From NCBI GenBank assembly GCA_016219225.1, contig JACRBX010000202.1, forward strand, positions 741 through 64,740: 64,000 nt of DNA. Direction: 5' to 3'. This document shows, piece by piece, positions 465 through 64,000 of the stretch; positions within the stretch are counted from its first letter, which is position 1, and every line of letters starts with the position of its first letter. The notes under the pieces are model-generated. The model was not told the DNA's origin. It searched no databases and saw nothing but the letters and a program-made list of their open reading frames with translations. A program made the position numbers and the translations under genes. This DNA is from Deltaproteobacteria bacterium. Lineage in GTDB: Bacteria; Desulfobacterota; RBG-13-43-22.

Positions 465-1667
465 ATGGCGAATATGACAAGGGCACTGGAAGGAATCAGG
501 GTTCTGGATCTGGGCAGCTATGTGGCCGCTCCCTATTGCTGTATGCTCCTGGCCGACCATGGGGCGGAGGTGATCCGGGCCGAACCGCCCGGGGGTAAGG
601 TGGACCGGGAGTTGGGGCCCTTTTCTTCGGAGGGCCAGCCTATCACCTATGGGTTGACCGTTCAGCGGAATAAAAAGAATATTACCCTGAATTTAAGATC
701 CGAAAGAGGAAAAGGTCTCCTCGAAGAGTTGGTTAAAAAAATGGATGTCCTCGTGCATAACTACCCCATGGGATCACAAGAGGCCGCCTTGCTCACCTAT
801 AAACGATTGAGCGGTATCAATCCGGCTCTGGTGGTGACGGCTATCTCTGGCTTCGGGCAAACCGGCCCTTATGCCGAACGGCTTTGTTTTGATTCCATTG
901 CCCAGGCCATGTCCGGCTATATGAGTTTCTCCGGTTATCCGGGATCCCCGCCGCTCAAGGCCTCCCTGCCATTTATAGATTACAATACGGCCGCCCGGGC
1001 CGCCCTGGGGACCATGCTGGCCCTCTTCGAGCGCAAAACCAGCGGGCAGGGGCAACTGGTGGATATCGCCCTCTTCGATGTAGCCTTTTCCATAACCGCC
1101 GCATCGGGCTGCGCCGCTGAATATAAGATGCTCGGGGAACTTCGAAAGCAAATCGGTAACTGCGGGTTTTATGCCTATGGCGGTAGTTGCCGGGCCAGGG
1201 ACGGTTACCTGATGATCAACATCATCGGCAACAATATCTGGCGTCGTATATGCCGGGTTATGGACCGGGAAGATTTGATTTCCGACCCCCGTTTTAAGGA
1301 TAACCTGAGCCGCTACCGGAACTATGAGTCGATCGATGTTATTTTAAACGAATGGATTAAAGAAAAGACCGTTGCCGAAGCCCGGCAGAACCTGGAAAAG
1401 GCCGGTGTCCCTTGCGGTCCGGTTAATGATGTTCCGGGGTCTCTGGAGGTGCCGCAGGTGGAAGCCCGGGAAATGCTGGTGGAAGTCGATTATCCGGGCA
1501 CTGGTAAGGTGCCGGTACCCGGGGTGGATATCAAGCTGTCGAGGACTCCCGGACAGGTGGCCAAACGGGCCTCTTTTCTGGGAGAGGACAACGAGGCCGT
1601 TTATTGCGGACTTCTCGGCTATAAGCCGGATGATCTCTTAAGGTTCGAACAGGAAAAAGCCATCTGA
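465..1667 (+). CDS. Family III CoA-transferase (CaiB/BaiF/formyl-CoA transferase type)
   Basis: N-terminal GIRVLDLGSYVAAPYCCMLLADHGAEVI motif typical of family III CoA-transferases, 400 aa. Paralog (about 75-80% identity by eye) of 33047..34204. Confidence 0.9.
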   Translation: MANMTRALEGIRVLDLGSYVAAPYCCMLLADHGAEVIRAEPPGGKVDRELGPFSSEGQPITYGLTVQRNKKNITLNLRSERGKGLLEELVKKMDVLVHNYPMGSQEAALLTYKRLSGINPALVVTAISGFGQTGPYAERLCFDSIAQAMSGYMSFSGYPGSPPLKASLPFIDYNTAARAALGTMLALFERKTSGQGQLVDIALFDVAFSITAASGCAAEYKMLGELRKQIGNCGFYAYGGSCRARDGYLMINIIGNNIWRRICRVMDREDLISDPRFKDNLSRYRNYESIDVILNEWIKEKTVAEARQNLEKAGVPCGPVNDVPGSLEVPQVEAREMLVEVDYPGTGKVPVPGVDIKLSRTPGQVAKRASFLGEDNEAVYCGLLGYKPDDLLRFEQEKAI

Positions 1668-1711
1668 ATTTATCTGTTGTGGGTTGAGCGTTAAGAAAAT
1701 AAGGAGGCATT

Positions 1712-2911
1712 ATGAAAAAGGGAAGAACTATTATTGGGTTACTGGGTATTTTTTTGTCAGTATTTCTTATCGGAACCCCCGACCTCATGGCCCAAAGCCC
1801 CAAGGGTTTAAAAATCGGGGTCTCAACCACTTTAACCGGGCCGGCCTCCTTTATAGGATGGCATGATAAAAATGGGGCCATCCTGACGGCCGAAGAGATT
1901 AACGAACGGGGAGGGGTCACCATAAAAGGGGAAAAGCATAAGGTCGAATTGGAAATATTTGATAACGAGACCAAGCCTGCTAAGGCCGTGGAAGGGATGC
2001 GTCTGTTTGCCGAGAAGGGCATCCATATCTCCCTCGGACCTCAATTGACCCCCATCACCCTGGCCTCCCTGAAATTCAACGAAGAGCTGAAGATCATCTT
2101 TGCTTCTTATAATACCACTCCTGAAGTCTTCGAACAGGGTAATAAGCTCCTCTTAAGCGCTACAGCCAACCAGAAATGGACCATGGGCTTGAGCACCTAT
2201 ACTGCCGCCAAAATATTGAAGGTGAAACGAGTGGCCCTTCTTCTGGATACCACCGGATTCGGGAGGTCGGTGGAGAAGCGCTTCAGCGAGTATTTTAAAA
2301 AATTCGGCGGAGAAGTGGTGGCCGTGGAGTGGTATGATATGGGTTCTACGGACTTCTATCCTCAGCTCACCCGGCTGAAGGCCAAAAATCCGGATGGAAT
2401 CCAAATCGGTGGGGCGGCAGCCGAGGTGGTAACCCTCATCCGTCAGGCCCGGGAGGTCCTGGGGAAAAAGATTTTGATCCTGGGATCGGATTATGTCAAG
2501 TTCGATCAATTGAAAAAAGCCGGCCTGGAGGTGTCTGAAAACACTTTAATCCCCCTCTCCGGGTTCCATATCATCGACAATAAGGCCCATAAGGAATTTG
2601 TCAAGAAATATAAAGACCGTTTTGGTTCCGAACCGGAGACCTATGCCGCATTAGTCCGTGACGAAATGCTTTATTTGACCCGGGCGGCGGAAATCGCCGG
2701 AACGGCCACGGATGCTTTTAAGATTCGAGAGGCCGTGGACAAGGCCATCGTCGAGCTGGATTCCCAGGGGAGGCTCATATCCGGGGCCCATGGCGGGTTT
2801 TTGCCCTCAGGGCTGGCCAAGAATTATTATATCAGCTCCAACCTGCTGCAGAACGGTAAACTGGTTCGTATCAAGACCATTTCCAGCCTGAAGGAAATCG
2901 GGGTGGAGTAG
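1712..2911 (+). CDS. ABC transporter periplasmic substrate-binding protein, LivK/type-I PBP family
   Basis: Signal peptide followed by a KIGVSTTLTGPASFIG...EINERGG motif. Gene order SBP-permease-permease-ATPase-ATPase. RBS AAGGAGG upstream. Confidence 0.9.
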   Translation: MKKGRTIIGLLGIFLSVFLIGTPDLMAQSPKGLKIGVSTTLTGPASFIGWHDKNGAILTAEEINERGGVTIKGEKHKVELEIFDNETKPAKAVEGMRLFAEKGIHISLGPQLTPITLASLKFNEELKIIFASYNTTPEVFEQGNKLLLSATANQKWTMGLSTYTAAKILKVKRVALLLDTTGFGRSVEKRFSEYFKKFGGEVVAVEWYDMGSTDFYPQLTRLKAKNPDGIQIGGAAAEVVTLIRQAREVLGKKILILGSDYVKFDQLKKAGLEVSENTLIPLSGFHIIDNKAHKEFVKKYKDRFGSEPETYAALVRDEMLYLTRAAEIAGTATDAFKIREAVDKAIVELDSQGRLISGAHGGFLPSGLAKNYYISSNLLQNGKLVRIKTISSLKEIGVE

Positions 2912-2918
2912 GGGCCAA

Positions 2919-3791
2919 ATGGGAACAGCCATCTTTCTGCAACAGGTGATCAACGGATTGGTGGTCGGGTCGATTTATGCCATGGTGGCCCTGGGTTTGA
3001 CCCTGATATTCGGCATCCTGCACATCGGCAATTTTGCCCATGGACAACTCTACATGCTCGGCGCCTTTGCCACCTATTGGATGGTCACGCTCTGGGGATG
3101 GAATATCTGGCTGGCTATGCTTGCGGCCATGGGACTCATGGCCCTTTTGGGCATCATTCTGGAGCGCATGGTCTTCCGGCCGGTCCATTCCGCCCCCCAT
3201 ATCAACGGGCTTATTGTCGCCCTGGGGCTCTTCATTGTCCTGGAGAATCTGGCTTTTATTCTCTGGGGCGGCGAAGAACGCATGTTGCCCTCACCCTATG
3301 CCACCAAAACAATTTCCTTCCTGAGCCTCACATTAACCATCCAGCGTCTCCTGGTCTTCATCGTAGCCGTTCTTTTGATCTTCTTACTTTACCTGTTTAT
3401 TCAGCGAACCAAAATGGGTAAGGCCATCCGGGCCGTGGCCCTGGATTCCGAGGTGGCTCGATTGATGGGTATCCCGATCCATCGTATCTCGGCTACGGTC
3501 TTTGCCGTCAGTTCGGCCCTGGCTGCGGCCGCCGGGGCCCTGGTCGGGCCGATTTTTTCGGTTTTTCCGGCCATGGGCTTGAGTCCTATCCTCAAGGCCT
3601 TTGTGGTGATCGTCATCGGAGGCATGGGTTCCATCCCGGGGGCGATTTTTGGCGGGTATGTTCTGGGCATAGCCGAAAGCCTGGGCGCCGGCTACCTTTC
3701 CTCCCAGTATAAAGACGGGTTCGCTTTTTTGGCTTTGATTGTGGTCCTGATGATTAAACCCACCGGGTTATTCGGAAAAAAAGAGGGATAA
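2919..3791 (+). CDS. ABC transporter permease, LivH-like
   Basis: Polytopic membrane protein with a conserved GYVLGIAESLG C-terminal LivH signature. Confidence 0.9.
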   Translation: MGTAIFLQQVINGLVVGSIYAMVALGLTLIFGILHIGNFAHGQLYMLGAFATYWMVTLWGWNIWLAMLAAMGLMALLGIILERMVFRPVHSAPHINGLIVALGLFIVLENLAFILWGGEERMLPSPYATKTISFLSLTLTIQRLLVFIVAVLLIFLLYLFIQRTKMGKAIRAVALDSEVARLMGIPIHRISATVFAVSSALAAAAGALVGPIFSVFPAMGLSPILKAFVVIVIGGMGSIPGAIFGGYVLGIAESLGAGYLSSQYKDGFAFLALIVVLMIKPTGLFGKKEG

Positions 3792-3799
3792 GGATTTTT

Positions 3800-4744
3800 A
3801 TGAAAAACAAGATCGGTTTGGTAACACTTCTGACGGCGCTGGTTATTTTACCTTTTTTCCTCTCCAAGACGCTGCTCCACCTGGCCGTTATCATCGAAAT
3901 TCATGCTATTCTGACCCTGAGCCTGTGCCTGGTGGTGGGCTATGTGGGACAACTTTCCCTCTGTCATGCCGGGTTCTATGGCATCGGGGCCTATACCTCG
4001 GCTCTGTTGACCTTTGCCCATTGGCCCTTCTGGATAACCCTGCCCCTATCCGGGGTCGTCAGCGGTCTCTTCGGCCTTTTCGTCGGCTTTCCTTCGCTCA
4101 AAACCAGGGGGATCTATTTTTCCATCACTACCATGTCCTTCGGGGTGCTTATCGCCATGGTGTTGAATAACTGGATCTCCCTGACCAACGGTCCGGACGG
4201 GTTATCGGGGATCAAAAGTCCGGAGCCCATCTCCCTTTTTAATGGGGCAGCCCTGTCTTTTAAGAATCCTATCCATTATTATTTTCTGGTGGGCTTTTTC
4301 CTGTTGTTTACCGTCCTGGTCATCAGTCGCCTTTTACGGTCCCGGGTCGGACGGGCCTTTATCGGGGTTCGGAACAACGAGACCCTGGCCTGGTCCCTAG
4401 GTATTAATTCGATGCGCTACAAATTGACTGCCTTTATTATCGCTGCTGTTTTTGCCGGATTGGCCGGAAGCCTGTATGCCCATTATCTGCGTTATATCTG
4501 CCCGAAGGATTTCGGACTTCACGAATCCTTCGACATGCTGGTCATGGTGGTGGTGGGTGGGGCCCAGACCCTTCTGGGGCCCATAGTCGGTGCCCTGTTT
4601 GTTCTGGGCCTGCCTAAATTTTTCGGATTTGAACCGGTCTACGGACGGGTGGCCTTCGGCATCATTCTGATTATGGTCATGATCTTCATGCCCCGGGGCA
4701 TCGTAGGAAAATGGCAGGAGTATTTTAAGTCATCCAGAGGATAA
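3800..4744 (+). CDS. ABC transporter permease, LivM-like
   Basis: Hydrophobic 314-aa protein with a LivM-type GQLSLCHAGFYGIGAY motif. Confidence 0.9.
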   Translation: MKNKIGLVTLLTALVILPFFLSKTLLHLAVIIEIHAILTLSLCLVVGYVGQLSLCHAGFYGIGAYTSALLTFAHWPFWITLPLSGVVSGLFGLFVGFPSLKTRGIYFSITTMSFGVLIAMVLNNWISLTNGPDGLSGIKSPEPISLFNGAALSFKNPIHYYFLVGFFLLFTVLVISRLLRSRVGRAFIGVRNNETLAWSLGINSMRYKLTAFIIAAVFAGLAGSLYAHYLRYICPKDFGLHESFDMLVMVVVGGAQTLLGPIVGALFVLGLPKFFGFEPVYGRVAFGIILIMVMIFMPRGIVGKWQEYFKSSRG

Positions 4745-4748
4745 TTAA

Positions 4749-5519
4749 ATGAACATCCTTGAAATGGAAGAGGTCTGTAAATCTTTCGGTGGATTAGCTG
4801 CCGTAACCAAACTGAATTTTTCCCTTTCCAGTCCTCAAGAAATTTTGGGCCTTATCGGGCCCAATGGGGCCGGTAAAACTACGGTCTTTAATCTGATTAC
4901 CGGGCTTCACCATCCCACGAACGGGAAGATCCGGTTCAAGGGGCAAGAGATCGGAGGGGAAAAACCCTACCGGATAGCCAGGCAGGGAATCTCCCGAACC
5001 TTCCAGACCACCTCCCTCTTTTTTGAGGAAACCGTTTTAACCAATATGTTGATTTCCCGGCATTGCCGCTTAAAATCAGGGCTTTGGGGGGCACTGGCTA
5101 TCCCAGGTGCGACGAGAGAAGAAGAGCGAAAAGCCTTTGAAAAGGCAGGAGAGATCCTGGAAGATACCGGCCTCGGGTCAAAGGCGAAAGATTATCCCCA
5201 TAATCTGACTAATGCCGAGCAGCGCATGCTGATGATTGCCATGGCCCTGGCCACGGACCCGGCCCTTATCCTTCTCGATGAACCTTTTGCCGGAATGAGG
5301 CACCATGAGACGGAAGTCCTTATGGAGTTGGTTCGAAAAATCAGCGGCTGGGGGATCGCCACGATTCTGATCGAGCACGACATGAAGGTGGTCATGAATA
5401 TCTGTGATCGCCTTGTGGTCTTGAATTTCGGGACAAAGATCGCTGAAGGCACACCTGACGAAATCAGGACCAACCCCCAGGTGGTCGAAGCCTACCTGGG
5501 CAGGAGAAGCCATGCTTAA
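4749..5519 (+). CDS. ABC transporter ATP-binding protein, LivG-like
   Basis: Walker A GPNGAGKTT and an LLDEP signature. C-terminal EAYLG. Confidence 0.9.
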   Translation: MNILEMEEVCKSFGGLAAVTKLNFSLSSPQEILGLIGPNGAGKTTVFNLITGLHHPTNGKIRFKGQEIGGEKPYRIARQGISRTFQTTSLFFEETVLTNMLISRHCRLKSGLWGALAIPGATREEERKAFEKAGEILEDTGLGSKAKDYPHNLTNAEQRMLMIAMALATDPALILLDEPFAGMRHHETEVLMELVRKISGWGIATILIEHDMKVVMNICDRLVVLNFGTKIAEGTPDEIRTNPQVVEAYLGRRSHA

Positions 5520-6216
5520 GATTAGAAGTCTATCCGTCCATTACAGCAATATCCAGGTCTTGAAAGAAGTATCCCTTGATATCGAGGCCGGGGAGATCGT
5601 CGCCTTCATCGGGGCCAATGGGGCGGGGAAAACAACCACCCTGAAGGGCATCTCGGGCCTGAAAGGGATCTCCTCCGGGACCATCGAATTCTTGGGACAG
5701 GAGATCAATAGCCTGTCGCCCGAAGCGATCGTCCGGAAAGGCATTGCCCACTGCCCGGAGGGAAGGCGGATTTTTTCCGAACTCACGGTGAAGGAAAATC
5801 TGGAGATAGGGGCCTATTGCCGGAATGACCGGGCCGGCGTTTCTCAGGATATGGAAGAGGTCATGTCTTTTTTCCCGATTCTCAAAGAGAAACAGGCCCA
5901 GTCCGGAGGGACCCTTTCCGGCGGCCAACAGCAGATGCTGGCCATCGCCCGGTCCCTGATGGCCCGCCCCAAACTTCTGATGCTCGACGAACCTTCTCTG
6001 GGACTGGGACCGATCATCGTGGATGAAATTTTTTCCATCATCCACCGGATCAGTCAGCAAGGAACCACCATTTTGCTTGTGGAGCAAAACGCCCGAATGG
6101 CCCTGGAATTGGCCCATAAGGCCTATGTCCTGGAAACGGGGGCCATAACGCTCCAGGGAAAGGCCTCCGAACTGATTGATAACGACCATGTCATCAAAGC
6201 CTACCTGGGGGGATGA
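5512..6216 (+). CDS. ABC transporter ATP-binding protein, LivF-like
   Basis: Walker A GANGAGKTT and an LSGGQQQMLAIAR signature. Overlaps the upstream ATPase gene, consistent with one operon. Confidence 0.9.
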   Translation: MLKIRSLSVHYSNIQVLKEVSLDIEAGEIVAFIGANGAGKTTTLKGISGLKGISSGTIEFLGQEINSLSPEAIVRKGIAHCPEGRRIFSELTVKENLEIGAYCRNDRAGVSQDMEEVMSFFPILKEKQAQSGGTLSGGQQQMLAIARSLMARPKLLMLDEPSLGLGPIIVDEIFSIIHRISQQGTTILLVEQNARMALELAHKAYVLETGAITLQGKASELIDNDHVIKAYLGG

Positions 6217-7943: not shown

Positions 7944-9257
7944 ATGGAGGGGTTGTATCTTGAAGGAATAAGGGTGGTGGATATCACCGTGGTCTGGGCC
8001 GGACCCTATGCGACGCAGATTCTGGCCGACTGGGGGGCGGAGGTCATTCGGATAGAGTCCTGTCAGCACTGGATGGTCCATACCCGGGGCACCCAGGCCA
8101 GGCCGCCGCAGGATACCATAAACCGCCAAACCTCTTTGCCCTGGTATCGGGGATATCCGGGATGGAAGGCCCACCCCAGGTCCTGGAACCGATTTCCCTG
8201 GTTCAATACCCATGCCAGAAATAAGCTTTCCATGACAGTGGATCTAAGCCGGCCGGAAGGGATGGATATATTCTGGAGGTTGATCGGGGAAGCGGATATT
8301 TTTATAGAAAACAACTCACCGGATACCCTGGATAAAATGGGCATTACCTATGAAAAGCTCCAGGAACAGAAACCGGATATCATCATGATCCGGATGCCCG
8401 GCTGGGCCCTGAGCGGGCCCTACCGGAATTATCGGGCCTTCGGATCGCACATGGAACATACCTGCGGTCATAGCGCTATTCGGGGCTACAGGGATTTGCC
8501 ACCCACCTCGCTGACCAGTGCCTTTCACTGCGATGCGGTTTCCGGGGGCACCGCTGCCTTTGCCGCGGTGATGGCCCTGCGTCAAAGGGATCGCACCGGA
8601 AAGGGGCAGCTTATCGAGATACCCCAGATTGAAAGCATGATTCCTCAAATGGGGCAGTCTATCATGGATTACACCATGAACGGCCGGGTGCAGCAGACGG
8701 TCGGAAACTGGGACCCCTCGCTGGCCACGGCCCCCCATAATTGTTACCGCTGCCAGGGGGATGACCGCTGGATCAATATCACCGTCACCTCGGAAAAGGA
8801 ATGGCAGGCCCTTTGCCGGATTATGGAGGATCCTCCCTGGACCCGGGAGGATCGCTTTGCCGATGCCCAAAGTCGTGTCAAAAATCAGGAGGCCCTGGAC
8901 GGGTTGGTGGAAGAATGGACGATCCGGCAGGATCCTATAATGCTGATGCACCGGCTTCAGGCAGCCGGGGTCCCGGCCGGTGCGGTCTTCAATGCCGAAG
9001 ATGCCTATAAGGATCCCCAGCTTGATGAGCGGGGTTTTTTCCAGCCCTTGACCCAGGAAGACTGCGGCACCCATCTCTATCACGGACTCGACTGGAAGGC
9101 CTCCAAAACGCCCAATGCCTTGCGCTTGCCCCCATGCCGGCTGGGAGAGCACAACGAATATGTCTACAAAAAGGTCATCGGCGTCTCGGACGAGGAATAC
9201 GCCCGGTTGGAAGAGGAAGGCCATATCGGGATGGATTTCATCCCATCCATTCCCTGA
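7944..9257 (+). CDS. Family III CoA-transferase
   Basis: GIRVVDITVVWAGPYATQILADWGAEVIRIE motif. AAGGAG RBS. It is adjacent to another family III member and so may be a heterodimer partner. Confidence 0.85.
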   Translation: MEGLYLEGIRVVDITVVWAGPYATQILADWGAEVIRIESCQHWMVHTRGTQARPPQDTINRQTSLPWYRGYPGWKAHPRSWNRFPWFNTHARNKLSMTVDLSRPEGMDIFWRLIGEADIFIENNSPDTLDKMGITYEKLQEQKPDIIMIRMPGWALSGPYRNYRAFGSHMEHTCGHSAIRGYRDLPPTSLTSAFHCDAVSGGTAAFAAVMALRQRDRTGKGQLIEIPQIESMIPQMGQSIMDYTMNGRVQQTVGNWDPSLATAPHNCYRCQGDDRWINITVTSEKEWQALCRIMEDPPWTREDRFADAQSRVKNQEALDGLVEEWTIRQDPIMLMHRLQAAGVPAGAVFNAEDAYKDPQLDERGFFQPLTQEDCGTHLYHGLDWKASKTPNALRLPPCRLGEHNEYVYKKVIGVSDEEYARLEEEGHIGMDFIPSIP

Positions 9258-9280
9258 CCGGAAAGTTAAAAAAACAGCAT

Positions 9281-9331
9281 TCGGGGATCGGGGGTCGGGG
9301 GTCGGGGATCAGGGATCAGGGATCGGGGATC
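9281..9331. repeat. Tandem short-period repeat (tcggggatc / gggggtc / agggatc units)
   Basis: Seen directly in the sequence. G-rich 7-9-mers in tandem. Confidence 0.7.
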
Positions 9332-9401
9332 TGTTGAAGGAAAGTTTCAGGGTTCAAGTTGCAAGTGGGACTTGACAACCCTGTGAAAAGTCCCCAATGC
9401 C

Positions 9402-9470
9402 GTCACCCCGGCGAAAGCCGGGGTCCGGAAGTAATTGAATGCCCTGGATTCCGGCTTTCGCCGGAATGAA
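9402..9470. repeat. REP/BIME-like inverted pair: left unit gtcaCCccggcGAAAgccggGGtccgg, right unit cctggattccggctttcgccggaatga
   Basis: Each unit is a hairpin with a GAAA (GNRA) loop. The left unit carries compensatory changes (TT..AA to CC..GG) relative to the other copies, which preserves the stem. Confidence 0.8.
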
Positions 9471-9539
9471 GTTTCGCGGGGTTCGGCGATTTTTTACGAA
9501 TTGAACGGACTTAAATTGTGAAAGAGGGGATTTTTTAAC

Positions 9540-9565
9540 TTGACAATTGTCGACAATCGTAATAT
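9540..9565 (+). promoter_or_regulatory. Putative promoter (TTGACA 9540-9545, TAATAT 9560-9565) overlapping a perfect 12-bp palindrome ATTGTCGACAAT (9546-9557). Candidate autoregulatory GntR/FadR operator.
   Basis: The palindrome fits the GntR-type xGT-N-ACx architecture and sits about 50 nt upstream of the regulator's start codon. Confidence 0.5.
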
Positions 9566-9608
9566 TGACTTTACTAAAATCTACAAAACCCCTAACGAGG
9601 AAGTCATC

Positions 9609-14778: not shown

Positions 14779-14784
14779 GAGGGG

Positions 14785-14819
14785 GTACGCGTTACGGGTT
14801 ACGAGTTGGTAGTTCAAAG
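14785..14819. repeat. Short repeat family K (gtacgcgttacgggttacgagtt..gttcaaag)
   Basis: An inverted copy lies at 58749..58783. Confidence 0.7.
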
Positions 14820-14845: not shown

Positions 14846-14942
14846 GTAGGGTGGGTGTAACGAAGTGAAACCCACCAATAAAAAAATGAAGTGAACCCCA
14901 TCAGGTTTATTGGTGGGTTCCGTTTCACTCCACCCACCCTAC
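14846..14942. repeat. Long imperfect hairpin element: two 12-bp stems (gtagggtgggtg/cacccaccctac and cccaccaataaa/tttattggtggg) with an internal loop
   Basis: Seen directly, about 70 nt after the carboxyltransferase stop. Could act as a terminator or be a REP-like structured element. Confidence 0.65.
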
Positions 14943-14949
14943 AAGCTTT

Positions 14950-15023
14950 CTCGCTAAGTCATTCCCGTTTTCACGGAAATGACGGAGAAGTTGTCGATGT
15001 GTTTTCAAAAAGCTAAACTGATA
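14950..15023. repeat. Solo REP-like unit (gtcattcccgttttcacggaaatgacggagaag) plus a conserved tail ttgtcg..ttttcaaaaagctaaactga
   Basis: The same tail (gacggagcgattgtcggcgctttttgaaaaagctaaactga) follows the REP pair at the window end (63959..64000). Confidence 0.7.
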
Positions 15024-20666: not shown

Positions 20667-20674
20667 AAAAAACA

Positions 20675-20817
20675 GGCTATGGGCAATAGGCGATAGGCAA
20701 TAGGCGAGCGGGAATAAGGGTTAACAGCACAAGATATCCGGTAGGTGGGTTTTCGTTAAACCTAAAACCTTCGATCCCCCGTCCCTGCCCATAGCCTATA
20801 GCCCATTGCCTCTTGCC
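20675..20817. repeat. Inverted pair of tandem short-period repeats (ggctatgggcaataggcgataggcaataggcg ... gcccatagcctatagcccattgcc) flanking about 65 nt. Potential long stem-loop.
   Basis: Seen directly. A related ctatagcc tandem repeat lies at 50991..51033. Confidence 0.7.
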
Positions 20818-22000: not shown

Positions 22001-22031
22001 AGTTTGGAGTTCGGTGTTCGGAGTTCGGAGT
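22001..22031. repeat. Family C tandem repeat (agttcgga 8-mers)
   Basis: Other copies at 38196, 45041, 50548, 52384, 52535 (inverted) and 61233/61271. Confidence 0.75.
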
Positions 22032-22088: not shown

Positions 22089-23297
22089 ATGAAAGAAGCA
22101 AAGCATTGTATGAAAAGCAGCCTGGGCATTTTTTGTTTATGTTTCTTCATCGGAATTTTCTTTCTGACCCCGCTGGTCTGTTCTGCGGCCGAAAAAGTCC
22201 TTAAGATCGGGGCGATTTTCCCGTTGTCCGGGAAAGGGGCGGTCTGGGGTATTGCCGCCCAGAGGGCTATAACCATTGTCCAGAAGGAGATTAATGGCCG
22301 GGGTGGTTTGAATGTGGCTGGTGATAAATACCGTTTGGAGATTATTTGGGAGGACGATAAGTTTAATGCCGCCACCGGCCGGATGGCTGCAGAAAAACTG
22401 GTCAACCGGGACGGGGTGAAATTTATCCTGGGTTCTCAATCTTCCGCGGTCCTGTTGGCCGTTCAGCCCATTACGGAGCCCAAAAAAATTCTTTTTTTCC
22501 TCAATTCCTTTGCCAAAGAGGTCCTGTCTCCGGATAAACCCTACAGCTACCGCATGGTCCTGACCTCCAATGAGATCCTGCCGGCCATGTATCCCTGGCT
22601 GGTCAAAAATTATCCGAAAGCAAAGACCGTGGCCTTTATCGAGCCCAATGATGCCAGCGGCTGGTCGGTGGAGAAGGACTGCCGACGGAACGCCGAAAAG
22701 AACAATCTCAAAATCGTCTTCTCCCAATTTTATGAACGGGGGACCTCGGATTTCTATCCCCTCCTGAATAAACTCATCCTCCAGAATCCGGATGTCATCG
22801 ACTTTACCGGTGCCCCTCCTGGTGATCAGGCCCTGATCGTCAAACAGGCCCGGGAGTTGGGTTTCAAAGGCAAGACCTTTGCGGCGACGACCATCGACCC
22901 GCCAGAATTCTGCAAGATCGCCGGGACTCAGAATGCCGAAGGCCATATCAGCAATACCCATGATCTGTTGGGGGCCTTTAATACGGAAGCCCAAAAAAAG
23001 TATGTTGAGGATTACCTGGCCCAGTTTGGAAAACCATTCGATCCGGTAACGCCCAAGTATACCCTCTACCTGGAGATCCTGGCCCAGGCCATTGAAAAAG
23101 CCGGAAGTCTGGATACGACCAAGGTGAAAGAGATACTGGATAAGACGGAGGAATGGAATTCAATTTATGGGAAGGCCCGATTCGGGGGCAAGGAATACTA
23201 CGGGATCAAACACCAGATCGTCACCCCGGTCTATATCTCCGAACTGATTAACGGGAAATTGGTCAACCGGGGCACCATGATGCCGGTCATTCATTAA
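22089..23297 (+). CDS. ABC transporter substrate-binding protein, LivK/type-I PBP family
   Basis: Signal peptide followed by KIGAIFPLSGKGAVWG...EINGRGG. AAGGAGG RBS. Followed by permease and ATPase genes. Confidence 0.9.
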   Translation: MKEAKHCMKSSLGIFCLCFFIGIFFLTPLVCSAAEKVLKIGAIFPLSGKGAVWGIAAQRAITIVQKEINGRGGLNVAGDKYRLEIIWEDDKFNAATGRMAAEKLVNRDGVKFILGSQSSAVLLAVQPITEPKKILFFLNSFAKEVLSPDKPYSYRMVLTSNEILPAMYPWLVKNYPKAKTVAFIEPNDASGWSVEKDCRRNAEKNNLKIVFSQFYERGTSDFYPLLNKLILQNPDVIDFTGAPPGDQALIVKQARELGFKGKTFAATTIDPPEFCKIAGTQNAEGHISNTHDLLGAFNTEAQKKYVEDYLAQFGKPFDPVTPKYTLYLEILAQAIEKAGSLDTTKVKEILDKTEEWNSIYGKARFGGKEYYGIKHQIVTPVYISELINGKLVNRGTMMPVIH

Positions 23298-23307
23298 AGG
23301 GCGATTA

Positions 23308-24165
23308 ATGAGTTTCCCATTTTTTATACAGGTCCTGGTCAACGGGCTGATGCTGGGGCTGACCTATGCCTTAATTGCTTCCGGCTTCAGCCTGATCTAT
23401 GGCATCATGCGGCTGTTAAACTTTGCCCATGGCGATTTTTATATGTTAGGGGCCTTCGCCACCTACCTCCTGTGTGAACGGTTAGGGATGGATTATTTTT
23501 CAGCCCTGTTGCTGAGCATGGTCCTGGTTGCCCTTCTGGGAGTCATCACCTATCATTTCTTCTTCCGGCCCTTCCGGGATCAACACGACCCCAGTGTGGT
23601 CATCGCCCTGGGCGTGGCCATGTTGATCGGCGGCCTGGCTCCTCTGGTCTTCGGAGAGAAGGACCAGTCCGTAACGCCGGTCTTTTCAGGGGTTGTCCGG
23701 TTTTTAGGGGCCACCCTTTCCCTGGAGAGGATCTTTGTCATTGCCATGGCCATTGTCCTGATGATCGCTTTAACCTTGTTTATTAAATTCACCAAAATGG
23801 GACAATCCATGCGGGCCGTGGCCCAGGATCAGGAAGCGGCCGCCCTCCAGGGCATCGGGGTCAATTCCACCTTCATGATGTGCATGGCCATCAGTTCCGC
23901 CCTGGCCGGGGCCGCCGGGTCCCTGCTGGCCCCCCTTTTTGTGGTCAATCCTTTCATCGGCACCCATGCCGTGCTCAAGGCCCTGGTTGTGGTGGTCATC
24001 GGCGGGATGGGCAGCATCCCCGGAGCGATTGCCGGGGGTCTTCTCTTGGGATTTGTAGAAAGTATCGGGAACACCTTTTTAGGCGGGGTAACGGAGATCC
24101 TGGGCTTTGTGATCGTTATGCTGGTCCTGATCTTTAAGCCCCAGGGACTGTTCGGCCATGGGTAA
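23308..24165 (+). CDS. ABC transporter permease, LivH-like
   Basis: Polytopic membrane protein with a C-terminal LGFVESIG signature. Confidence 0.9.
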   Translation: MSFPFFIQVLVNGLMLGLTYALIASGFSLIYGIMRLLNFAHGDFYMLGAFATYLLCERLGMDYFSALLLSMVLVALLGVITYHFFFRPFRDQHDPSVVIALGVAMLIGGLAPLVFGEKDQSVTPVFSGVVRFLGATLSLERIFVIAMAIVLMIALTLFIKFTKMGQSMRAVAQDQEAAALQGIGVNSTFMMCMAISSALAGAAGSLLAPLFVVNPFIGTHAVLKALVVVVIGGMGSIPGAIAGGLLLGFVESIGNTFLGGVTEILGFVIVMLVLIFKPQGLFGHG

Positions 24166-25099
24166 GCGCAAATTGGGGTATCTGATTTTATTCATTCTCC
24201 TGGCGGCTTTTCCGATCTTCAACCAGGATCCTTTTATATTACACATCCTGATTACCACCGGGATCTGGGCGACTTCCGTCTGGGGGGTCAGACTGATCAT
24301 GTCCACCGGACAGTTGACCCTGGGACATGCCGCCTATATGGCCGTAGGGGCCTATGCCTCGGCTCTATTGGTCATGAAGGCCGGGTTTTCCTTCTGGCTG
24401 GCCCTGCCGCTGGCCGGCCTGATCGCGGCCCTGGTGGCGCTTTTGATCGGCTATCCGACCTTGCGTATCAAAGGGGTTTATTTTGCCATCATCACCTTTG
24501 CCTTTGCCGAGATCGTCCGCTTGATCATCGTCAACTGGCCCGGTTTTTTAGGGGGGTCCGGCGGGATTCCCGGTATCCCCTCTCCCTCCCCTTTTTTTTC
24601 CATCCCTTTCAGCGGCCGGGTCCCTTTCTACTATCTGATTTTATTTATATCACTAGTGACCTTTCTGGTCATGAGGGGTATTGATAAAAGCCGGATCGGA
24701 AAAATTTTTTCAGCCATTCACGAAAGCGACGATCTGTCCCAATCCTTTGGTATCAATATAATGAAATACAAACTGATTGCCTTCTGTCTGGGCTGTTTTT
24801 TCGCCGGGTTGAGTGGAAGTTTTTACGTCCATTACTATAATTTTGCCAGTCCGGAGTTTTTTACCATCTGGCAATCCGTTTATTGCCTCCTTTTTGTCAT
24901 CGTCGGAGGGGTCGGCGGTGTTTTCGGACCCCTTTTGGGCTCATTTTTTATGACCCTGGTGCCTGAATTTTTACGGGAAACCAAGGAATATGAACCGGTG
25001 ATTTACGCCGTTATTCTGATCCTGGTCATGTTTTTGCTGCCCGGAGGATTGATTACGCTGCCGGCGCGGTTGGGAAGAAAAAAAGGCCACAAAGAATGA
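24158..25099 (+). CDS. ABC transporter permease, LivM-like
   Basis: Hydrophobic protein that overlaps the upstream permease gene. Confidence 0.9.
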   Translation: MGKRKLGYLILFILLAAFPIFNQDPFILHILITTGIWATSVWGVRLIMSTGQLTLGHAAYMAVGAYASALLVMKAGFSFWLALPLAGLIAALVALLIGYPTLRIKGVYFAIITFAFAEIVRLIIVNWPGFLGGSGGIPGIPSPSPFFSIPFSGRVPFYYLILFISLVTFLVMRGIDKSRIGKIFSAIHESDDLSQSFGINIMKYKLIAFCLGCFFAGLSGSFYVHYYNFASPEFFTIWQSVYCLLFVIVGGVGGVFGPLLGSFFMTLVPEFLRETKEYEPVIYAVILILVMFLLPGGLITLPARLGRKKGHKE

Positions 25100-25100
25100 A

Positions 25101-25232
25101 AATATCGAATAACGAATAATGAATGTCGAAGGAAATAAAAGCGAGGTTCAATGTTCAACGTTGAACCTTAAACCGAAACCTTGAGTCTTTGTTACTTCAT
25201 GATTCGAAATTCGGTGTTCGATATTCGATATT
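25101..25232. repeat. Family D unit (aatatcgaataacgaataatgaatgtcgaag) and its inverted copy (cttcatgattcgaaattcggtgttcgatattcgatattcg) flanking a central perfect palindrome ggttcaatgttcaacgttgaacc (25145-25167)
   Basis: Seen directly. MITE-like architecture. Confidence 0.75.
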
Positions 25233-25262
25233 CGTATTTTTGATCCAAGGATTCAAAAATCG

Positions 25263-26027
25263 ATGCTCTTAACTATCGAAAATGTAACCAAAAACTTCGG
25301 CGGGCTGGCGGCCCTTTGGAATTTGAGTTTCCAGGTTAATGAAGGGGAAATCCTTGGGCTGCTGGGACCCAATGGTTCGGGCAAGACTACGCTTTTTAAT
25401 GTGGTCAGCGGATTTTTTTCCCCTTCGGCCGGCCGGGTCTTTTTTAATGGCCGGGATATTACCGGATTTCGGCCCAACAAGATCGCCCAATTCGGTTTGG
25501 TACGCACCTTTCAAGGAACCAATCTATTCAAGAACCGGACGGTTTGGGAAAATGTGGTTATTGCCCACCACCTGATGATCAAGGCCAATTTCCTGGAACT
25601 TCTTCTAAACCAAGTGCGGGCCAAAACAAGTGAAGCAGCCGTCGAGAGGCACAGCAAGGAAATCCTGGAGTATCTGGGCCTTTTAGCCGTCAGGGAAGAT
25701 CTGGCCCATAATCTGCCCCATGGCCTTCAGCGGGCCTTGGGGGTGGCCATTGCCCTGGCGGCCCAGCCCCGGTTGCTGCTGCTGGACGAGCCTCTGACCG
25801 GAATGAACCCGGAGGAGTCCCGAAGGTTTATCGATTTGATTCGGGGTCTGCGGGACAGGGGGATCACCCTGATGATCGTGGAACACGATATGAAGGCCAT
25901 CATGGGTGTCAGTGACCGGATAGTCGTCCTTAATTATGGACAAAAGATCGCTGAAGGTCCTCCCCAGGAGATCCAACGGGACCCCAAGGTAATTGAGGCC
26001 TATCTGGGAAGCGAGGTTCCGGTATGA
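25263..26027 (+). CDS. ABC transporter ATP-binding protein, LivG-like
   Basis: Walker A GPNGSGKTT and an LLLDEP signature. Confidence 0.9.
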   Translation: MLLTIENVTKNFGGLAALWNLSFQVNEGEILGLLGPNGSGKTTLFNVVSGFFSPSAGRVFFNGRDITGFRPNKIAQFGLVRTFQGTNLFKNRTVWENVVIAHHLMIKANFLELLLNQVRAKTSEAAVERHSKEILEYLGLLAVREDLAHNLPHGLQRALGVAIALAAQPRLLLLDEPLTGMNPEESRRFIDLIRGLRDRGITLMIVEHDMKAIMGVSDRIVVLNYGQKIAEGPPQEIQRDPKVIEAYLGSEVPV

Positions 26028-26743
26028 CCCAACTATCCTGGTTTTCTTTGCAGAACCTGAAGGTTTCTTACGGAGCCGCCCCGGCCCTGAAGGGAATCTC
26101 CTTACAAGTCGAGACTGGGAATATCGTTACCCTCATCGGGTCGAATGGCGCCGGAAAAAGCACGACCTTACGGGCTATATCCGGATTGGTCCCCCTGGCA
26201 GAAGGGGAGATTTTTTTTGAAGGAAAAAAGATTCATGGTCTTTCTCCACAGGAAATTGTCCATCGCGGAATCGCCCATGTCCCTGAAGGCAGAAGGGTCT
26301 TCCCGTTCATGACCGTTCTCGAAAATCTGAAAATGGGGGCTTTTCGCCGCAAGGATAAGAAAGAGATCCGGATGGACCTGGAAAAGCTCTTTGAGCACTT
26401 TCCGGTTTTGCGGGACAGACAGGCTCAAAGGGCCGGGAGTCTCAGTGGAGGAGAACAACAGATGCTGGCCATTGGCCGGGCCTTGATGTCCCAACCGCGG
26501 TTACTCCTTTTAGATGAACCTTCCATGGGTTTGGCTCCCATAATGGTCCAGGAATTAAGCCGGATAATCATCGAGATCAACCAGAGGAATGTGGGTATCA
26601 TCATCGTTGAGCAAAATGCCCAAATGGCCCTGCGCCTGGCCCATCAGGCCTATGTGTTGGAAACGGGATCGGTTGTTTTGGAAGGAAAGGCTTCGGACCT
26701 GATCCATGATGAACACATCCGAAAGGCGTATTTGGGGGGATGA
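26024..26743 (+). CDS. ABC transporter ATP-binding protein, LivF-like
   Basis: GSNGAGKST and an LSGGEQQMLAIGRAL signature. Confidence 0.9.
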   Translation: MTQLSWFSLQNLKVSYGAAPALKGISLQVETGNIVTLIGSNGAGKSTTLRAISGLVPLAEGEIFFEGKKIHGLSPQEIVHRGIAHVPEGRRVFPFMTVLENLKMGAFRRKDKKEIRMDLEKLFEHFPVLRDRQAQRAGSLSGGEQQMLAIGRALMSQPRLLLLDEPSMGLAPIMVQELSRIIIEINQRNVGIIIVEQNAQMALRLAHQAYVLETGSVVLEGKASDLIHDEHIRKAYLGG

Positions 26744-26747
26744 AAGA

Positions 26748-26816
26748 AAGGTACAAGGTATAAGGTGCAGGGTGTAAGGTAAAATCTCAAACCTTAAACC
26801 CTCAACCTAGAACCTT
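26748..26816. repeat. Family G: aaggt-period tandem repeat and its inverted copy (caaggtataaggtgcagggtgtaaggt ... accttaaaccctcaacctagaacctt)
   Basis: A related copy lies at 52338..52375. Confidence 0.7.
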
Positions 26817-28030: not shown

Positions 28031-28576
28031 ATGAACGAGCAGGAACGGGAAAAATGGTATGCTTTTGAGCATCAAAAATATGGCATCCCCATTGAATATC
28101 TGAAGCGGGAATTTGAAAAAGAGTTGTCAGGCCAAGTCCCTATGGACCAACCCCTGGAGATACCTGACAAGATGGAGGTCATCTATAAGTACAGTTACGG
28201 CCAACAATCCCGGTTTTTCAGGGAACTGCGGGAAAACAAGAAAATTTACGGGGCCAAATGCCCCCAATGCAGCAAGGTCTACTGCCCTCCCAGGGCCCAT
28301 TGTTCCCTGTGCTATCAGCCTACCGAATGGGTGCCTTTGACCGGGACCGGGGTGATCAAGACCTTTACGGTCCAGTATATCTCCACCAGTGCCTTTATTA
28401 AAAAAGTTCCCTTTGTCTGCGCCTATGTGCAATTAGATGGAACCGATTTTCTGCTCATGGCCAATATGGAAGTGGAAGATGTGGCCCGGATCAGGGTGGG
28501 GACAAAAGTCAAGGCCGTCTTTCGTGAAGAACGGCAGGGGACCATCACGGATTTTTATTTTGAACCGTACGAATAA
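28031..28576 (+). CDS. DUF35 protein (rubredoxin-like Zn ribbon plus OB-fold), partner of the thiolase-fold protein
   Basis: CPQCSKVYCPPRAHCSLC zinc ribbon. Size (about 180 aa) and thiolase-adjacent position match BbsA and the ChsH2-DUF35 domain. Confidence 0.8.
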   Translation: MNEQEREKWYAFEHQKYGIPIEYLKREFEKELSGQVPMDQPLEIPDKMEVIYKYSYGQQSRFFRELRENKKIYGAKCPQCSKVYCPPRAHCSLCYQPTEWVPLTGTGVIKTFTVQYISTSAFIKKVPFVCAYVQLDGTDFLLMANMEVEDVARIRVGTKVKAVFREERQGTITDFYFEPYE

Positions 28577-28581
28577 TTTTT

Positions 28582-28614
28582 TTGACAGGATTTACGGGAT
28601 TGACAGGATTGACA
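28582..28614 (+). promoter_or_regulatory. Tandem 9-bp direct repeats TTGACAGGA / TTTACGGGA / TTGACAGGA / TTGACAAAT, each containing a -35-like box. Possible direct-repeat regulator site or promoter upstream of the BKACE-ligase-MaoC genes.
   Basis: Seen directly. The same TTGACAGGAT word also occurs at 16247. Confidence 0.4.
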
Positions 28615-28646
28615 AATTCATAAAAAGTCCCTATGCGCGCATATTC

Positions 28647-28724
28647 GTCATTCCCGTGAAAACGGGAATCCAGTGCTTTTAAGCAGTCACGAGTTGACTG
28701 GATTCCCGCCTTCGCGGGAATGAC
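28647..28724. repeat. REP/BIME-like inverted pair (gtcATTCCCGTgaaaACGGGAATccag, a 24-nt spacer, then ctggATTCCCGCcttcGCGGGAATgac)
   Basis: Two 8-bp-stem hairpins in opposite orientation. Homologous to the elements at 9402, 43298 and 63886. Confidence 0.85.
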
Positions 28725-28838
28725 GAGTTTTTGCGAGTTAATCAGGATTGTATTTTCCCCTTTCTTGTCGAAGGGTAAAAAAATCCAATTAATCCCTTTT
28801 AAAAGTAATTTAATACACATCAATCGCGGAGGCCATAA

Positions 28839-38393: not shown

Positions 38394-38432
38394 TAAAGAT
38401 CATTAAAAATGGGAAAGACAAGGAGAGGGATC

Positions 38433-39575: not shown

Positions 39576-39645
39576 AGAAAAAAAGTTTCAAGTTTCAAGA
39601 TGCAAGTCAAGACACCATTTTCAAACTGGTATAGGGGTATGAGCG

Positions 39646-40506: not shown

Positions 40507-40544
40507 CTGAACCGGCCCTTTGGGGGCGACACGAAGAATGAAAA

Positions 40545-40669
40545 AATCGAATATCGAATAATGAATATCGAATGTCGAATGTCGAAGGAAGGCAAAGACC
40601 AATCACTTCATTATTCACAATTTCGAATTAAGCCCTCATGCCCCAGGGGCGCCACGGAGCATGAAAATG
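40545..40669. repeat. Family D unit (aatcgaatatcgaataatgaatatcgaatgtcgaatgtcgaagg), a partial inverted copy (cttcattattcacaatttcgaatt), then a family E hairpin unit (agccctcatgccccaggggcgccacggagcatgaaaatg)
   Basis: Seen directly. Overlaps the first 9 codons of the track ORF starting at 40661, which argues for the later start at 40760. Confidence 0.75.
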
Positions 40670-40759
40670 ACCCGTAAGGGCGGGTTTAAAACCCGCTCCT
40701 ACAGAGCTTCTTTGGAAGTGGGTTTTTTAAATTCCGCAATCCGAAATGGGAAGAGATCT

Positions 40760-43189: not shown

Positions 43190-43191
43190 AA

Positions 43192-43220: not shown

Positions 43221-43297
43221 GAAACCTCTGGAAAATGTAATAATTTTGTGCTTTGAAAAATTTGAGCCCTAATCTGAAAATTCGGACTTTCTTACAC

Positions 43298-43375
43298 GTC
43301 ATTCCCGTGGAAACGGGAATCCAGGTGTTATGCTGAGACGAAAAGAACCTGGATTCCGGTTTTGACCGGAATGAC
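43298..43375. repeat. REP/BIME-like inverted pair (gtcATTCCCGTggaaACGGGAATccagg, a 22-nt spacer, then cctggATTCCGGttttgaCCGGAATgac)
   Basis: Homologous to 9402, 28647 and 63886. Confidence 0.85.
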
Positions 43376-43447
43376 GGAGAGGTTATTCCCCGCATTCGTT
43401 CGAGAGGGACTTTTAAAGGTCCATCCGCCTTGAAGGATTGAAATTAA

Positions 43448-63840: not shown

Positions 63841-63885
63841 GCAACAATTGGTGAATTCGTGAAAAGTCGCTGAAACCCGCATTAC

Positions 63886-64000
63886 GTCATTCCGGCGAAA
63901 GCCGGAATCCAGGGTTTTTTAATTTCAGAATAGTTCTGGATTCCGGCTTTCGCCGGAATGACGGAGCGATTGTCGGCGCTTTTTGAAAAAGCTAAACTGA
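63886..64000. repeat. REP/BIME-like inverted pair (gtcATTCCGGCgaaaGCCGGAATccagg, a 22-nt spacer, then ctggATTCCGGCtttcGCCGGAATgac) plus the conserved tail ..tttttgaaaaagctaaactga
   Basis: Homologous to 9402, 28647 and 43298. The tail is identical to 15005-15023. Confidence 0.85.

Follow-up and report, generated by a model that had tools for sequence, protein, structure and literature searches.

The stretch of DNA analyzed here, 64,000 nucleotides from a contig of a Deltaproteobacteria bacterium (JACRBX010000202.1; hereafter the window), contains four pairs of short inverted hairpins and one solitary hairpin. The hairpin pairs are probably the conserved cores of non-autonomous MITEs (miniature inverted-repeat transposable elements) that have insertion sequence (IS) ends and would be moved in trans by a DDE transposase, the pairs being kept as a strand-specific single-stranded structure. 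By its sequence, the hairpin unit is the known CGTC-1 repetitive extragenic palindrome (REP), that is, the family of the Neisseria dRS3/NTS and 'SRM' repeats, because it has a CGTC tag, an 8-bp stem, a 4-nt loop, a CCAG tail and outward-facing tags. The terminal inverted repeats and target duplications that surround the cores were absent from an earlier description of this DNA made without database searches (hereafter the sequence-only reading).

Nine oriented units with an 8-bp stem and a 4-nt loop were found in the window, as four outward-tagged pairs and one solo. The outward-facing CGTC tags of the four pairs lie at 9401/9471, 28646/28725, 43297/43376 and 63885/63963, and the tag is CGTC in eight of the nine units and CTTC in one. 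Two types of stem occur, AT and AC, the latter with an A-T pair followed by C-G. The units are as follows.
9401..9428, plus strand: AC-type unit, CGTC-ACCCCGGC-GAAA-GCCGGGGT-CCGG, folds at -11.1 kcal/mol and matches the SRM pattern.
9444..9471, minus strand: AT-type unit, CTTC-ATTCCGGC-GAAA-GCCGGAAT-CCAG, tag mutated from CGTC to CTTC.
28646..28673, plus strand: unit CGTC-ATTCCCGT-GAAA-ACGGGAAT-CCAG, supported by its fold and by core and SRM pattern matches.
28698..28725, minus strand: unit CGTC-ATTCCCGC-GAAG-GCGGGAAT-CCAG, an exact match to the Neisseria NTS consensus.
43297..43324, plus strand: unit CGTC-ATTCCCGT-GGAA-ACGGGAAT-CCAG, supported by its fold and a core match.
43349..43376, minus strand: unit CGTC-ATTCCGGT-CAAA-ACCGGAAT-CCAG, its stem unlike that of its partner and internally perfect.
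63885..63912, plus strand: unit CGTC-ATTCCGGC-GAAA-GCCGGAAT-CCAG, supported by its fold and an SRM pattern match.
63936..63963, minus strand: unit identical to its partner at 63885, giving a perfect 28-nt inverted repeat (100% complementary).
14958..15021, plus strand: collapsed pair, consisting of the solo hairpin and a variant right arm that ends AAAAAGCTAAACTGA.

Re-reading of the sequence located the four pairs and the half element where the sequence-only reading had placed them. Folded as single-stranded DNA (ssDNA), every 28-nt unit gives an 8-bp stem and a 4-nt loop, with energies of -7.7 to -11.1 kcal/mol (z -3.6 to -5.2), confirming the hairpin proposed for each unit, and whole pairs reach -22.7 to -36.5 kcal/mol (DNA parameters; z -5.9 to -11.5). 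The core ATTCCSG-N6-CSGGAAT has seven exact matches in the window and 10 with two mismatches or fewer; shuffled sequences gave 2.99 +/- 1.91 core matches, and none of 100 shuffles reached 10. A partner spacing of 22-24 nt had been reported; it holds for three pairs (24, 24 and 23 nt) and is 15 nt in the 9402 copy. On the tagged strand the loop is GAAA in six of the nine units and GAAG, GGAA or CAAA in the remainder. All pairs and the solo are intergenic, mostly 70-180 nt past a plus-strand stop codon, in a block of plus-strand genes for CoA-transferase, acyl-CoA dehydrogenase, AMP-ligase and branched-chain ABC-transporter paralogues. The solo at 14958-14983, which reads GTC-ATTCCCGT-TTTC-ACGGAAAT-GAC with one mismatch in the stem, had been taken for a half-unit at about 14950. 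The hairpin exists, and because GTC/GAC tags flank it on both sides it is here regarded as a collapsed pair; the same double-tagged form recurs in locus L100 at 3847-3872. Directly adjoining the collapsed CGTC unit is a 97-nt palindrome (14846-14942) with outward GTAG tags (GTAGGGTGGGTG ... CACCCACCCTAC) and 38-nt arms that are 84% complementary. It occurs once in the window and looks like a GTAG-class REP pair, or REPIN (REP doublet forming a hairpin).

CGTC-1 repeats were defined by Di Nocera, De Gregorio and Rocco (2013; PMC3733652) by an 8-bp stem from A-T/T-A, a 4-nt loop and a CCA tail. The same survey describes 'HH dimers', pairs with the tags outside, as the main form of CGTC-1, equates CGTC-1 with Neisseria dRS3, reports that CGTC repeats prefer sites between unidirectional and convergent open reading frames (ORFs), and found no association with genes for REP-associated tyrosine transposases (RAYTs) or other transposases in more than 80 species. 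Chenal et al. (2025; PMC11893778) extended dRS3 to the 28-nt NTS, CGTCATTCCCGCGMAVGCGGGAATCYRG, and to a degenerate 'SRM' pattern, and identified the partner of the NTS as SsnA, a single-domain GIY-YIG nuclease of 94 aa. This enzyme binds the hairpin solely in its ssDNA form and on one strand only, and cuts a few nucleotides upstream of the tag; its activity in Neisseria is abolished by an altered palindrome even where the hairpin is kept, and SRM repeats surround 71% of ssnA homologues (PMC11893778). The SRM pattern has six sites in the window versus 0.43 expected, corresponding to five of the nine units and one probable chance match, and the NTS consensus is matched in full by the unit at 28698-28725. 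The palindromes that had been described as REP-class and paired in inverted orientation are formally CGTC-1 REP 'HH dimers' (PMC3733652), with four HH pairs and one collapsed pair, all extragenic. Among the matches listed from other genomes (see below), the tag is CGTC in 200 and TGTC in 80 of 300 units, and the CCAG tail is present in 291 of 300; in the window units, stem and loop conform as folded. The AC-type arm departs from the published definition at its second pair, with all eight pairs kept. Rfam gave no match at gathering thresholds over the whole window, and an E-value scan of 9320-9540 returned chance-level hits only, the best at 19 bits versus cut-offs of 59-114.

Outside the tags, the window copies remain similar along their arms for about 40 nt and share a box, GTGAAAAGTC. 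Metagenomes were scanned for this box 6-20 nt upstream of a unit, which gave at least 120 loci, and 22 complete metagenomic copies were used for the alignment and profile of the element. Conservation in this alignment stops at an outer TTGATG/CATCAA. The modal element is 135 nt long, with end repeats of about 21 nt (TTGAYGnnCTCGTRAAAAGTC). The left half of the consensus runs TTGAtGatCTCGTGAAAAGTC - 16/17 nt - CGTC ATTCCGGC GAAA GCCGGAAT CCAG - spacer of about 15-24 nt, and the right half continues CTGG ACCCCGGC TTTC GCCGGGGT GACG - 0 or 8/9 nt - GACTTTTTACGAGatCATCAA. The pair is systematically asymmetric: in about 40 of 46 strand-wise records, the hairpin next to the 17-nt stretch is ATT-type and the one on the short side is ACC- or ACT-type. 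The AT/AC heterodimer is evidently the ancestral arrangement, with a second hairpin that was ancestrally of the ACCCCGG/ACTCCGG type. Small, non-coding and multi-copy, the element is present 4.5 times in 64 kb; the coordinates given in the sequence-only reading cover the core of each copy, and the elements are larger, as listed here.
9373..9507, minus strand: MITE copy A, full length (135 nt), reverse to the family consensus, identified by nhmmer and by end-to-end alignment to a reference copy (nhmmer 9373-9502 (-), model 7-136, 94.5 bits, E 1.5e-28).
9369..9372 and 9508-9511: target duplication GACT of copy A.
9373..9392, plus strand: end repeat of copy A, at the end with the AC unit, TGACAACCCTGTGAAAAGTC, matching TTGAYGnnCTCGTRAAAAGTC.
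9488..9507, plus strand: second end repeat of copy A, GATTTTTTACGAATTGAACG.
28610..28744, plus strand: MITE copy B, full length, 135 nt (nhmmer model 2-136, 81.2 bits, E 1.9e-24).
28606-28609 and 28745-28748: target duplication GGAT of copy B.
43262..43426 (approximate), plus strand: MITE copy C, degenerate, with an intact core, eroded ends and about 22 extra nt in the right arm (nhmmer core 43275-43377 (+), model 13-109, E 1.3e-12).
63849..64000, plus strand: MITE copy D, cut by the window end and extending past it, with a good left end, (T)TGGTGAATTCGTGAAAAGTC, at 63848-63868 (nhmmer 63849-63965 (+), model 2-110, 85.5 bits, E 9e-26).

The arrangement of copy A is canonical: its AC arm is on the side with 8 nt, and its AT arm on that with 17 nt. 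The right arm of copy D is a variant that replaces the usual end and is common to the 14958 solo, for which nhmmer found a fragment (14961-14993 (-), model 29-61, E 0.0019). Two copies had been said to share an identical 3' tail; the 14958 and 63963 copies are identical over the last 15 nt only. A 9-mer array, TTGACAGGA x3.7 at 28582-28614, runs into the left end of copy B, and its unit holds the outer TTGACA and the GGAT duplication, as if the junction had been reiterated.

A duplication of 4-5 bp was observed at all eight end-to-end copies with intact TGR...TCA ends, namely six of the eight copies printed from metagenome-assembled genomes (MAGs) and two window copies. The MAG copies have AGAT, AAAT, AAAT, TAAT, AGAT and GTTAG. 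In the window, copies A and B are both exactly 135 nt when the ends are set at TGA...TCA, and the direct repeat at copy A is also readable as 6 nt, GGACTT, at 9368-9373 and 9507-9512. Among metagenomic copies, seven of 18 (39%) have a duplication of at least 4 bp, versus 7.6% for re-paired flanks. At the site of copy B, the spacer measures 262 nt in the window versus 53 nt in syntenic relatives (L124-126, 82% protein identity), which supports a gain of sequence in the window.

A candidate source of transposase was found in locus L172, where a MITE copy abuts a 1.9-kb IS with the ends TTGACGCCCTCGTAAAAAGTC and GACTTTTTACGGGGGCGTCAA. This IS contains a 591-aa ORF with the domains DUF772, DDE_Tnp_1 and DDE_Tnp_1_6 and, read from domain content and size alone, would be of the IS5/IS1182 type. 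Three further IS variants at nine loci (L248-L256) have the same ends, and the DDE transposase of the IS is 580-595 aa long overall; all of these IS loci, including L172, come from other samples than the window genome. The IS flanks can be paired across contigs broken at the repeat, giving 4-bp repeats AGAT, ATAT and ATAA. The 591-aa protein has 5047 relatives at E<=1e-40, with source names that include Syntrophales, Smithellaceae, Deltaproteobacteria and Omnitrophota. The 1.9-kb IS is likely the mobilizer of the MITE because the two share their ends, their duplication length and their host lineage. MITE copies were also seen in tandem (L054 1324-1622 and L156 at about 190-470), and at the MITE-IS junction in L172 (815-968) the ends abut, 2-4 nt apart. 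The tandem copies and the IS-abutting copy suggest a preference for insertion beside an existing end.

In the proposed mechanism, the IS transposase would move the 135-nt MITE in trans by a cut-or-copy-and-paste route, and the hairpin pair would persist for its action as a strand-specific single-stranded structure, most likely a DNA hairpin presented on either strand, the form that Ssn-type GIY-YIG nucleases of other bacteria bind and, a few nt 5' of the tag, cleave. Because the tags point outward, there is one unit in the correct orientation on each DNA strand, and either strand, when single-stranded, would present an Ssn-type site. The 28-nt arms, if co-transcribed, would also form a stable RNA hairpin. 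DNA mini-hairpins with GCGAAAGC-type loops are reportedly unusually stable in DNA, according to work by Hirao and colleagues.

The distribution of the core was assessed by scanning one genome per species for the exact outward-tagged pair, which gave at least 120 loci; figures for this cross-phylum set refer to the matches listed. Sources were labelled Alpha-, Beta-, Gamma- and Deltaproteobacteria, Dehalococcoidia, Elusimicrobia, Patescibacteria, Planctomycetota, Nitrospiraceae, Omnitrophota, Verrucomicrobiia, Ignavibacteriae and others. End-to-end element matches were found only in Deltaproteobacteria/Desulfobulbaceae MAGs, the other phyla having the core only. It was considered whether the pairs of all phyla are nested in longer palindromes, and this was ruled out, as only 16 of 121 pairs have extended inverted flanks above control. 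Tag, loop and tail are oriented one way at 298 of 301 sites, as would be consistent with strand-specific recognition by Ssn. In plasmid collections, a search for the CCGG-type pair gave no match, and the CCCG-type pair matched Azospirillum, Cupriavidus, sphingomonad and Neisseria records; when the Cupriavidus plasmid locus was followed, no empty-site counterpart was found. Two PLSDB records filed as plasmids, NZ_CP119142.1 and NZ_CP119140.1, are 2.17-Mb Neisseria gonorrhoeae chromosomes with 36-38 pair matches each. The homology search for relatives of the window returned a 99% match on one 3.2-kb Logan contig, other relatives being at most 89% identical; a 99%-identical strain is present in SRR22388082. 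No unit was found in about 35 kb of non-redundant sequence from these relatives, which hints at a lineage-specific expansion.

Strong covariation of the stem is seen in more than 300 copies, which come from many phyla, and the stem is under pairing constraint, as the sequence-only reading had argued from a single copy. The scan pattern left two stem positions free and both covary, with 270 C-G, 29 G-C and one mismatch at the S..S position and 275 C-G, 18 T-A and seven others at the N1..N6 position (units among the matches listed, counted, like all covariation figures here, per copy and not per evolutionary event). A fuzzy search blind to pairing returned more copies with two differences than with one (54 versus 11), and its stem changes comprised 61 Watson-Crick double changes versus 29 one-sided changes. 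G-T wobbles were not enriched among the one-sided changes (5 G-T versus about 13 A-C). When 61 distinct units were aligned, double-sided changes were present at five of the eight stem pairs, and the 31 double-sided cells compare with 5.9 +/- 2.0 in shuffles (0 of 500). Both units are internally perfect in 18 of the 24 pairs whose partners differ, which indicates that the local hairpin is maintained and not a long helix between units. Hairpin-internal template switching during repair, rather than selection, could be the source of compensatory changes in individual copies; it leaves unexplained the stable, family-wide AT/AC asymmetry tied to two different arm spacings. GNRA tetraloops, as the loops had been described, are not the conserved feature: the loops among the matches listed are GAAA (103), GAAG (64), GCAG (60) and also GCAA, that is, the GMAV of the NTS.

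The double substitution at 9402, the starting point of the argument for a pairing constraint, is real: stem positions 2 and 3 are altered on both sides and eight pairs are kept. It is evidently an old, inherited family feature and not a private event of this copy. The ACCCCGG stem is the standard second arm in most metagenomic copies, and a 93%-identical copy of the 9402 element lies in a different context in L219; because the stem is canonical family-wide and recurs in L219, it is not regarded as a local event. The other three window pairs are AT/AT variants.

Several findings weigh against the transposition model. No transposase of this IS was found in the 64-kb window by six-frame ORF searches or by a Pfam scan of 56 ORFs, and transposition in trans is inferred from the shared ends and the duplications. 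At copy B, the difference between the filled and the empty site is about 200 nt and not a clean 135+4 nt, and one or both good ends are missing from copies C and D and the solo. The MITE's interior is not derived from that of the IS. As for the proposed single-stranded role, an HMM (hidden Markov model) search of all six-frame ORFs found no Ssn-like gene in the window (best E 0.24), and just one independent MITE-bearing metagenomic locus has a nearby, divergent GIY-YIG gene. The AC-type arms may also not be substrates of Ssn, since an altered palindrome abolishes the activity of Neisseria SsnA (PMC11893778).

The link to Ssn nucleases comes from other phyla. At five of the 120 cross-phylum loci among the matches listed, a single-domain GIY-YIG protein of 95-101 aa (PF01541) is encoded directly beside the units. 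In L110 the gene (5349-5609) lies exactly between an outward pair, with a plus-strand unit at 5301-5325 and a minus-strand unit at 5640-5664, and in L060 the order is pair, gene, pair. These genes reproduce the published association, and their arrangement suggests that the pairs may be the gene-less form of a unit-gene-unit arrangement. NCBIfam was uninformative for the GIY-YIG proteins, and the PDB held no relative. Two further loci, L130 (2079-2270) and L195 (3461-3694), have a divergent GIY-YIG gene (product 34% identical to that of L110) with a tRNA gene on one side and, on the other, a sub-family element with the ends CAGACTGTGTGAAAAGTC and a second hairpin split by an insertion in the loop. 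They were not used as evidence because they represent a single independent locus and the gene is not flanked on both sides. In L075 (256-780), a reading frame that begins as a GIY-YIG gene continues through the repeats, giving peptides such as VIPAHAGIQ and LDSRMRGND; translation of CGTC repeats is likely to be one origin of the spurious 'hypothetical proteins' found in databases.

An alternative built on this link is that the pairs are REPIN-like elements dependent on Ssn, in which the outward pair is a gene-less derivative of an NTS-ssnA-NTS unit that is bound, cut and perhaps moved as ssDNA, the outer repeats being incidental. The GIY-YIG genes beside units, as arranged in L110 and L060, agree with it, as do the SRM repeats around most ssnA homologues, the strand-specific ssDNA cleavage upstream of the tag (PMC11893778) and the finding that most pairs in other phyla lack extended inverted flanks. 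Conservation and the 4-bp duplications here are found at IS-type ends and not at the tags, the window has no Ssn-like gene, and transposase activity has not been demonstrated for Ssn (PMC11893778). This alternative is judged unlikely.

It is also rather improbable that the pairs function as RNA-level elements, that is, that transcribed pairs terminate or stabilize the RNA between co-directional genes, or serve as RNase III cleavage sites, a role established for E. coli REPs and Neisseria Correia elements. All copies are intergenic and mostly follow a plus-strand stop codon at 70-180 nt, whole pairs fold strongly under DNA parameters, CGTC repeats prefer sites between unidirectional or convergent ORFs (PMC3733652), and RNase III processing of MITE repeats is documented, all of which this explanation would accommodate. 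A scan for terminators (stem plus T-run) nevertheless gave no site at 9200-9600 or 28500-28900, a promoter scan was likewise without result at the elements scanned, and Rfam gave no match at gathering over the window. The loops are not consistently GNRA, one-sided stem changes show no bias toward those compatible with G-U, and both orientations occur in every case although tag, loop and tail are specific to one strand. End repeats and target duplications would be left unexplained. The RNA hairpin or transcript reading that had been entertained earlier is thus not favored, the GMAV loops, the missing G-T enrichment and the lack of a terminator-like site at the two elements scanned all speaking against it; as a by-product, an effect of the long hairpin on transcripts is plausible and is compatible with the MITE model. 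The RAYT partner expected in the sequence-only reading, that is, a classical REP or bacterial interspersed mosaic element (BIME) spread by an IS200/IS605-like Y1 transposase, has in its favor a general resemblance only (extragenic inverted palindrome pairs with an unpaired tetranucleotide at one end) and is very improbable, given that the tag is CGTC and not GTAG, that CGTC repeats are not associated with RAYT or transposase genes in more than 80 species (PMC3733652), that the Pfam scan of 56 window ORFs gave no Y1_Tnp domain, and that 4-bp duplications and 21-nt end repeats are foreign to HUH/Y1 'peel and paste' transposition.

A more far-reaching version of the MITE model, for which the chances are put as slim, is that the asymmetric AT/AC pair might be a portable recognition cassette for GIY-YIG Ssn nucleases inside a DDE-type MITE. 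If so, spread of the MITE would seed strand-specific ssDNA cleavage sites on both strands, and the two arm types would be read by different Ssn paralogues or would mark the left and right ends. A DDE transposase used for spread would be coupled to a GIY-YIG nuclease used for ssDNA processing or for a second, single-strand transposition route, which would explain how CGTC repeats, long thought to be without a transposase, reach many phyla.

The hairpins themselves are a known, very widespread repeat class, and the RAYT reading of them is not supported. The literature search made here turned up no description of a REP pair packaged in an asymmetric 135-nt MITE with IS ends, the nearest precedent being a remark on Halothiobacillus neapolitanus (PMC3733652), and a search of papers for the end repeats as sequence strings gave only chance matches in eukaryotic primer lists. 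A repeat family that was called transposase-less in 2013 and tied to an ssDNA nuclease in 2025 is here found inside a MITE that has its ends and 4-bp duplications in common with a DDE IS abundant in Syntrophales- and Smithellaceae-labelled sequences, which would offer a concrete route for the spread of CGTC hairpins in at least one large lineage. The clear element boundaries are of use for annotation, because repeats of this kind fragment assemblies and give rise to spurious ORFs, and the natural AT/AC arm variants would be useful for learning what Ssn-type nucleases read.

Other repeats are abundant in the window. About 31 short heptamer tandem arrays (three to seven copies) were found, of which 28 are intergenic and 15 begin 16 nt or less from a stop codon; the units include AGTTCGG, CGAATAT, AAGTTTC, GCTTTGA, TCGGGGA, TCCGAAA and AGCGATC. 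Examples are as follows.
9281-9331, 14782-14807, 20674-20705, 22001-22031, 25101-25124, 26748-26781 and 39583-39607: heptamer arrays.
43191-43214, 45041-45068, 52385-52414, 52535-52566, 56395-56420 and 61234-61257: further heptamer arrays.

Several arrays are paired in inverted orientation 70-120 nt apart, for example 52384-52414 versus 52537-52567 (97% complementary). The arrays resemble the cyanobacterial STRR repeats, here in a Syntrophales-like genome. A motif, CACCACGAAGCATGAAAA, is present in six copies (7811, 38228(-), 40527, 40650, 51039(-) and 58680), several of which adjoin CGAATAT arrays, and these may be another composite intergenic repeat family. Comparison of L121 (1-44) with the window (28795-28838) identified a strain that has a 99%-identical BKACE gene and, just upstream of it, a different heptamer array (ATCCAGY), the window sequence there being unrelated. 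In this lineage, turnover appears to be much faster in intergenic regions than in genes. Positions 1-63000 of the window consist of three to four paralogous cassettes with 60-80% DNA identity (for example 465-6216, 22089-26743 and 38409-43189), which contain genes for a family III CoA-transferase, a branched-chain-type ABC transporter (periplasmic binding protein, two permeases and two ATPases), an AMP-ligase, a thiolase-like protein and an acyl-CoA dehydrogenase.

Compared with known systems, the elements resemble the REPINs and BIMEs of RAYTs (Bertels and Rainey 2011; Nunvar 2010; Ton-Hoang 2012) in that two inverted REP hairpins and a spacer replicate as a unit, singletons are decayed pairs, and BIME partners are of different types (Y/Z), as are the AT and AC arms; REPINs and BIMEs differ in having a GTAG tag and an HUH Y1 enzyme, with no long end repeats and no target duplications. 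The NTS/SRM-SsnA system is matched by the unit at 28698-28725, which is the NTS consensus, by the SRM pattern in five of nine units, by the GMAV loops, and by GIY-YIG genes flanked by such units in other phyla. Unlike that system, the 64-kb window has no ssnA, and the AC-type stems differ from the Neisseria palindrome, which matters in that SsnA reads sequence as well as shape; the outward-tagged pair as a unit, end repeats, target duplications and a DDE IS do not feature in the NTS/SRM paper (PMC11893778).

With CGTC-1 REPs the units have in common the CGTC/TGTC tag, the 8-bp stem from A-T, the 4-nt loop, the CCA(G) tail, outward tags, a spacing of 15-35 nt, location outside genes, and sub-families whose stem changes are complementary. 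The CGTC-1 survey found the repeats mainly in Alphaproteobacteria, and in five phyla, and described mostly homodimers with no transposase, whereas here the host is a Syntrophales-like member of the Thermodesulfobacteriota, exact pairs occur in many more phyla, and what appears to be an ancestral AT/AC heterodimer lies within IS-type end repeats. The CGTC-1 dimers of Halothiobacillus neapolitanus (PMC3733652) are alike in that the pair is always nested in a lineage-specific palindrome, of 41 bp and with a GAAAA box; the outer sequence differs, and no IS, duplication or mobility was reported there. Finally, IS-derived MITEs, such as the Correia/NEMIS elements of Neisseria (reviewed in PMC10969869), and IS5/IS1182-type DDE IS offer a parallel in their size of less than 200 nt, non-coding sequence, ends that match a full IS, short target duplication of fixed length, many intergenic copies and tandem insertions (as in L054 and L156). 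Unlike those MITEs, the interior here is a conserved REP-class hairpin pair and not a deleted IS, and the same family of REP-class pairs exists elsewhere without any end repeats.

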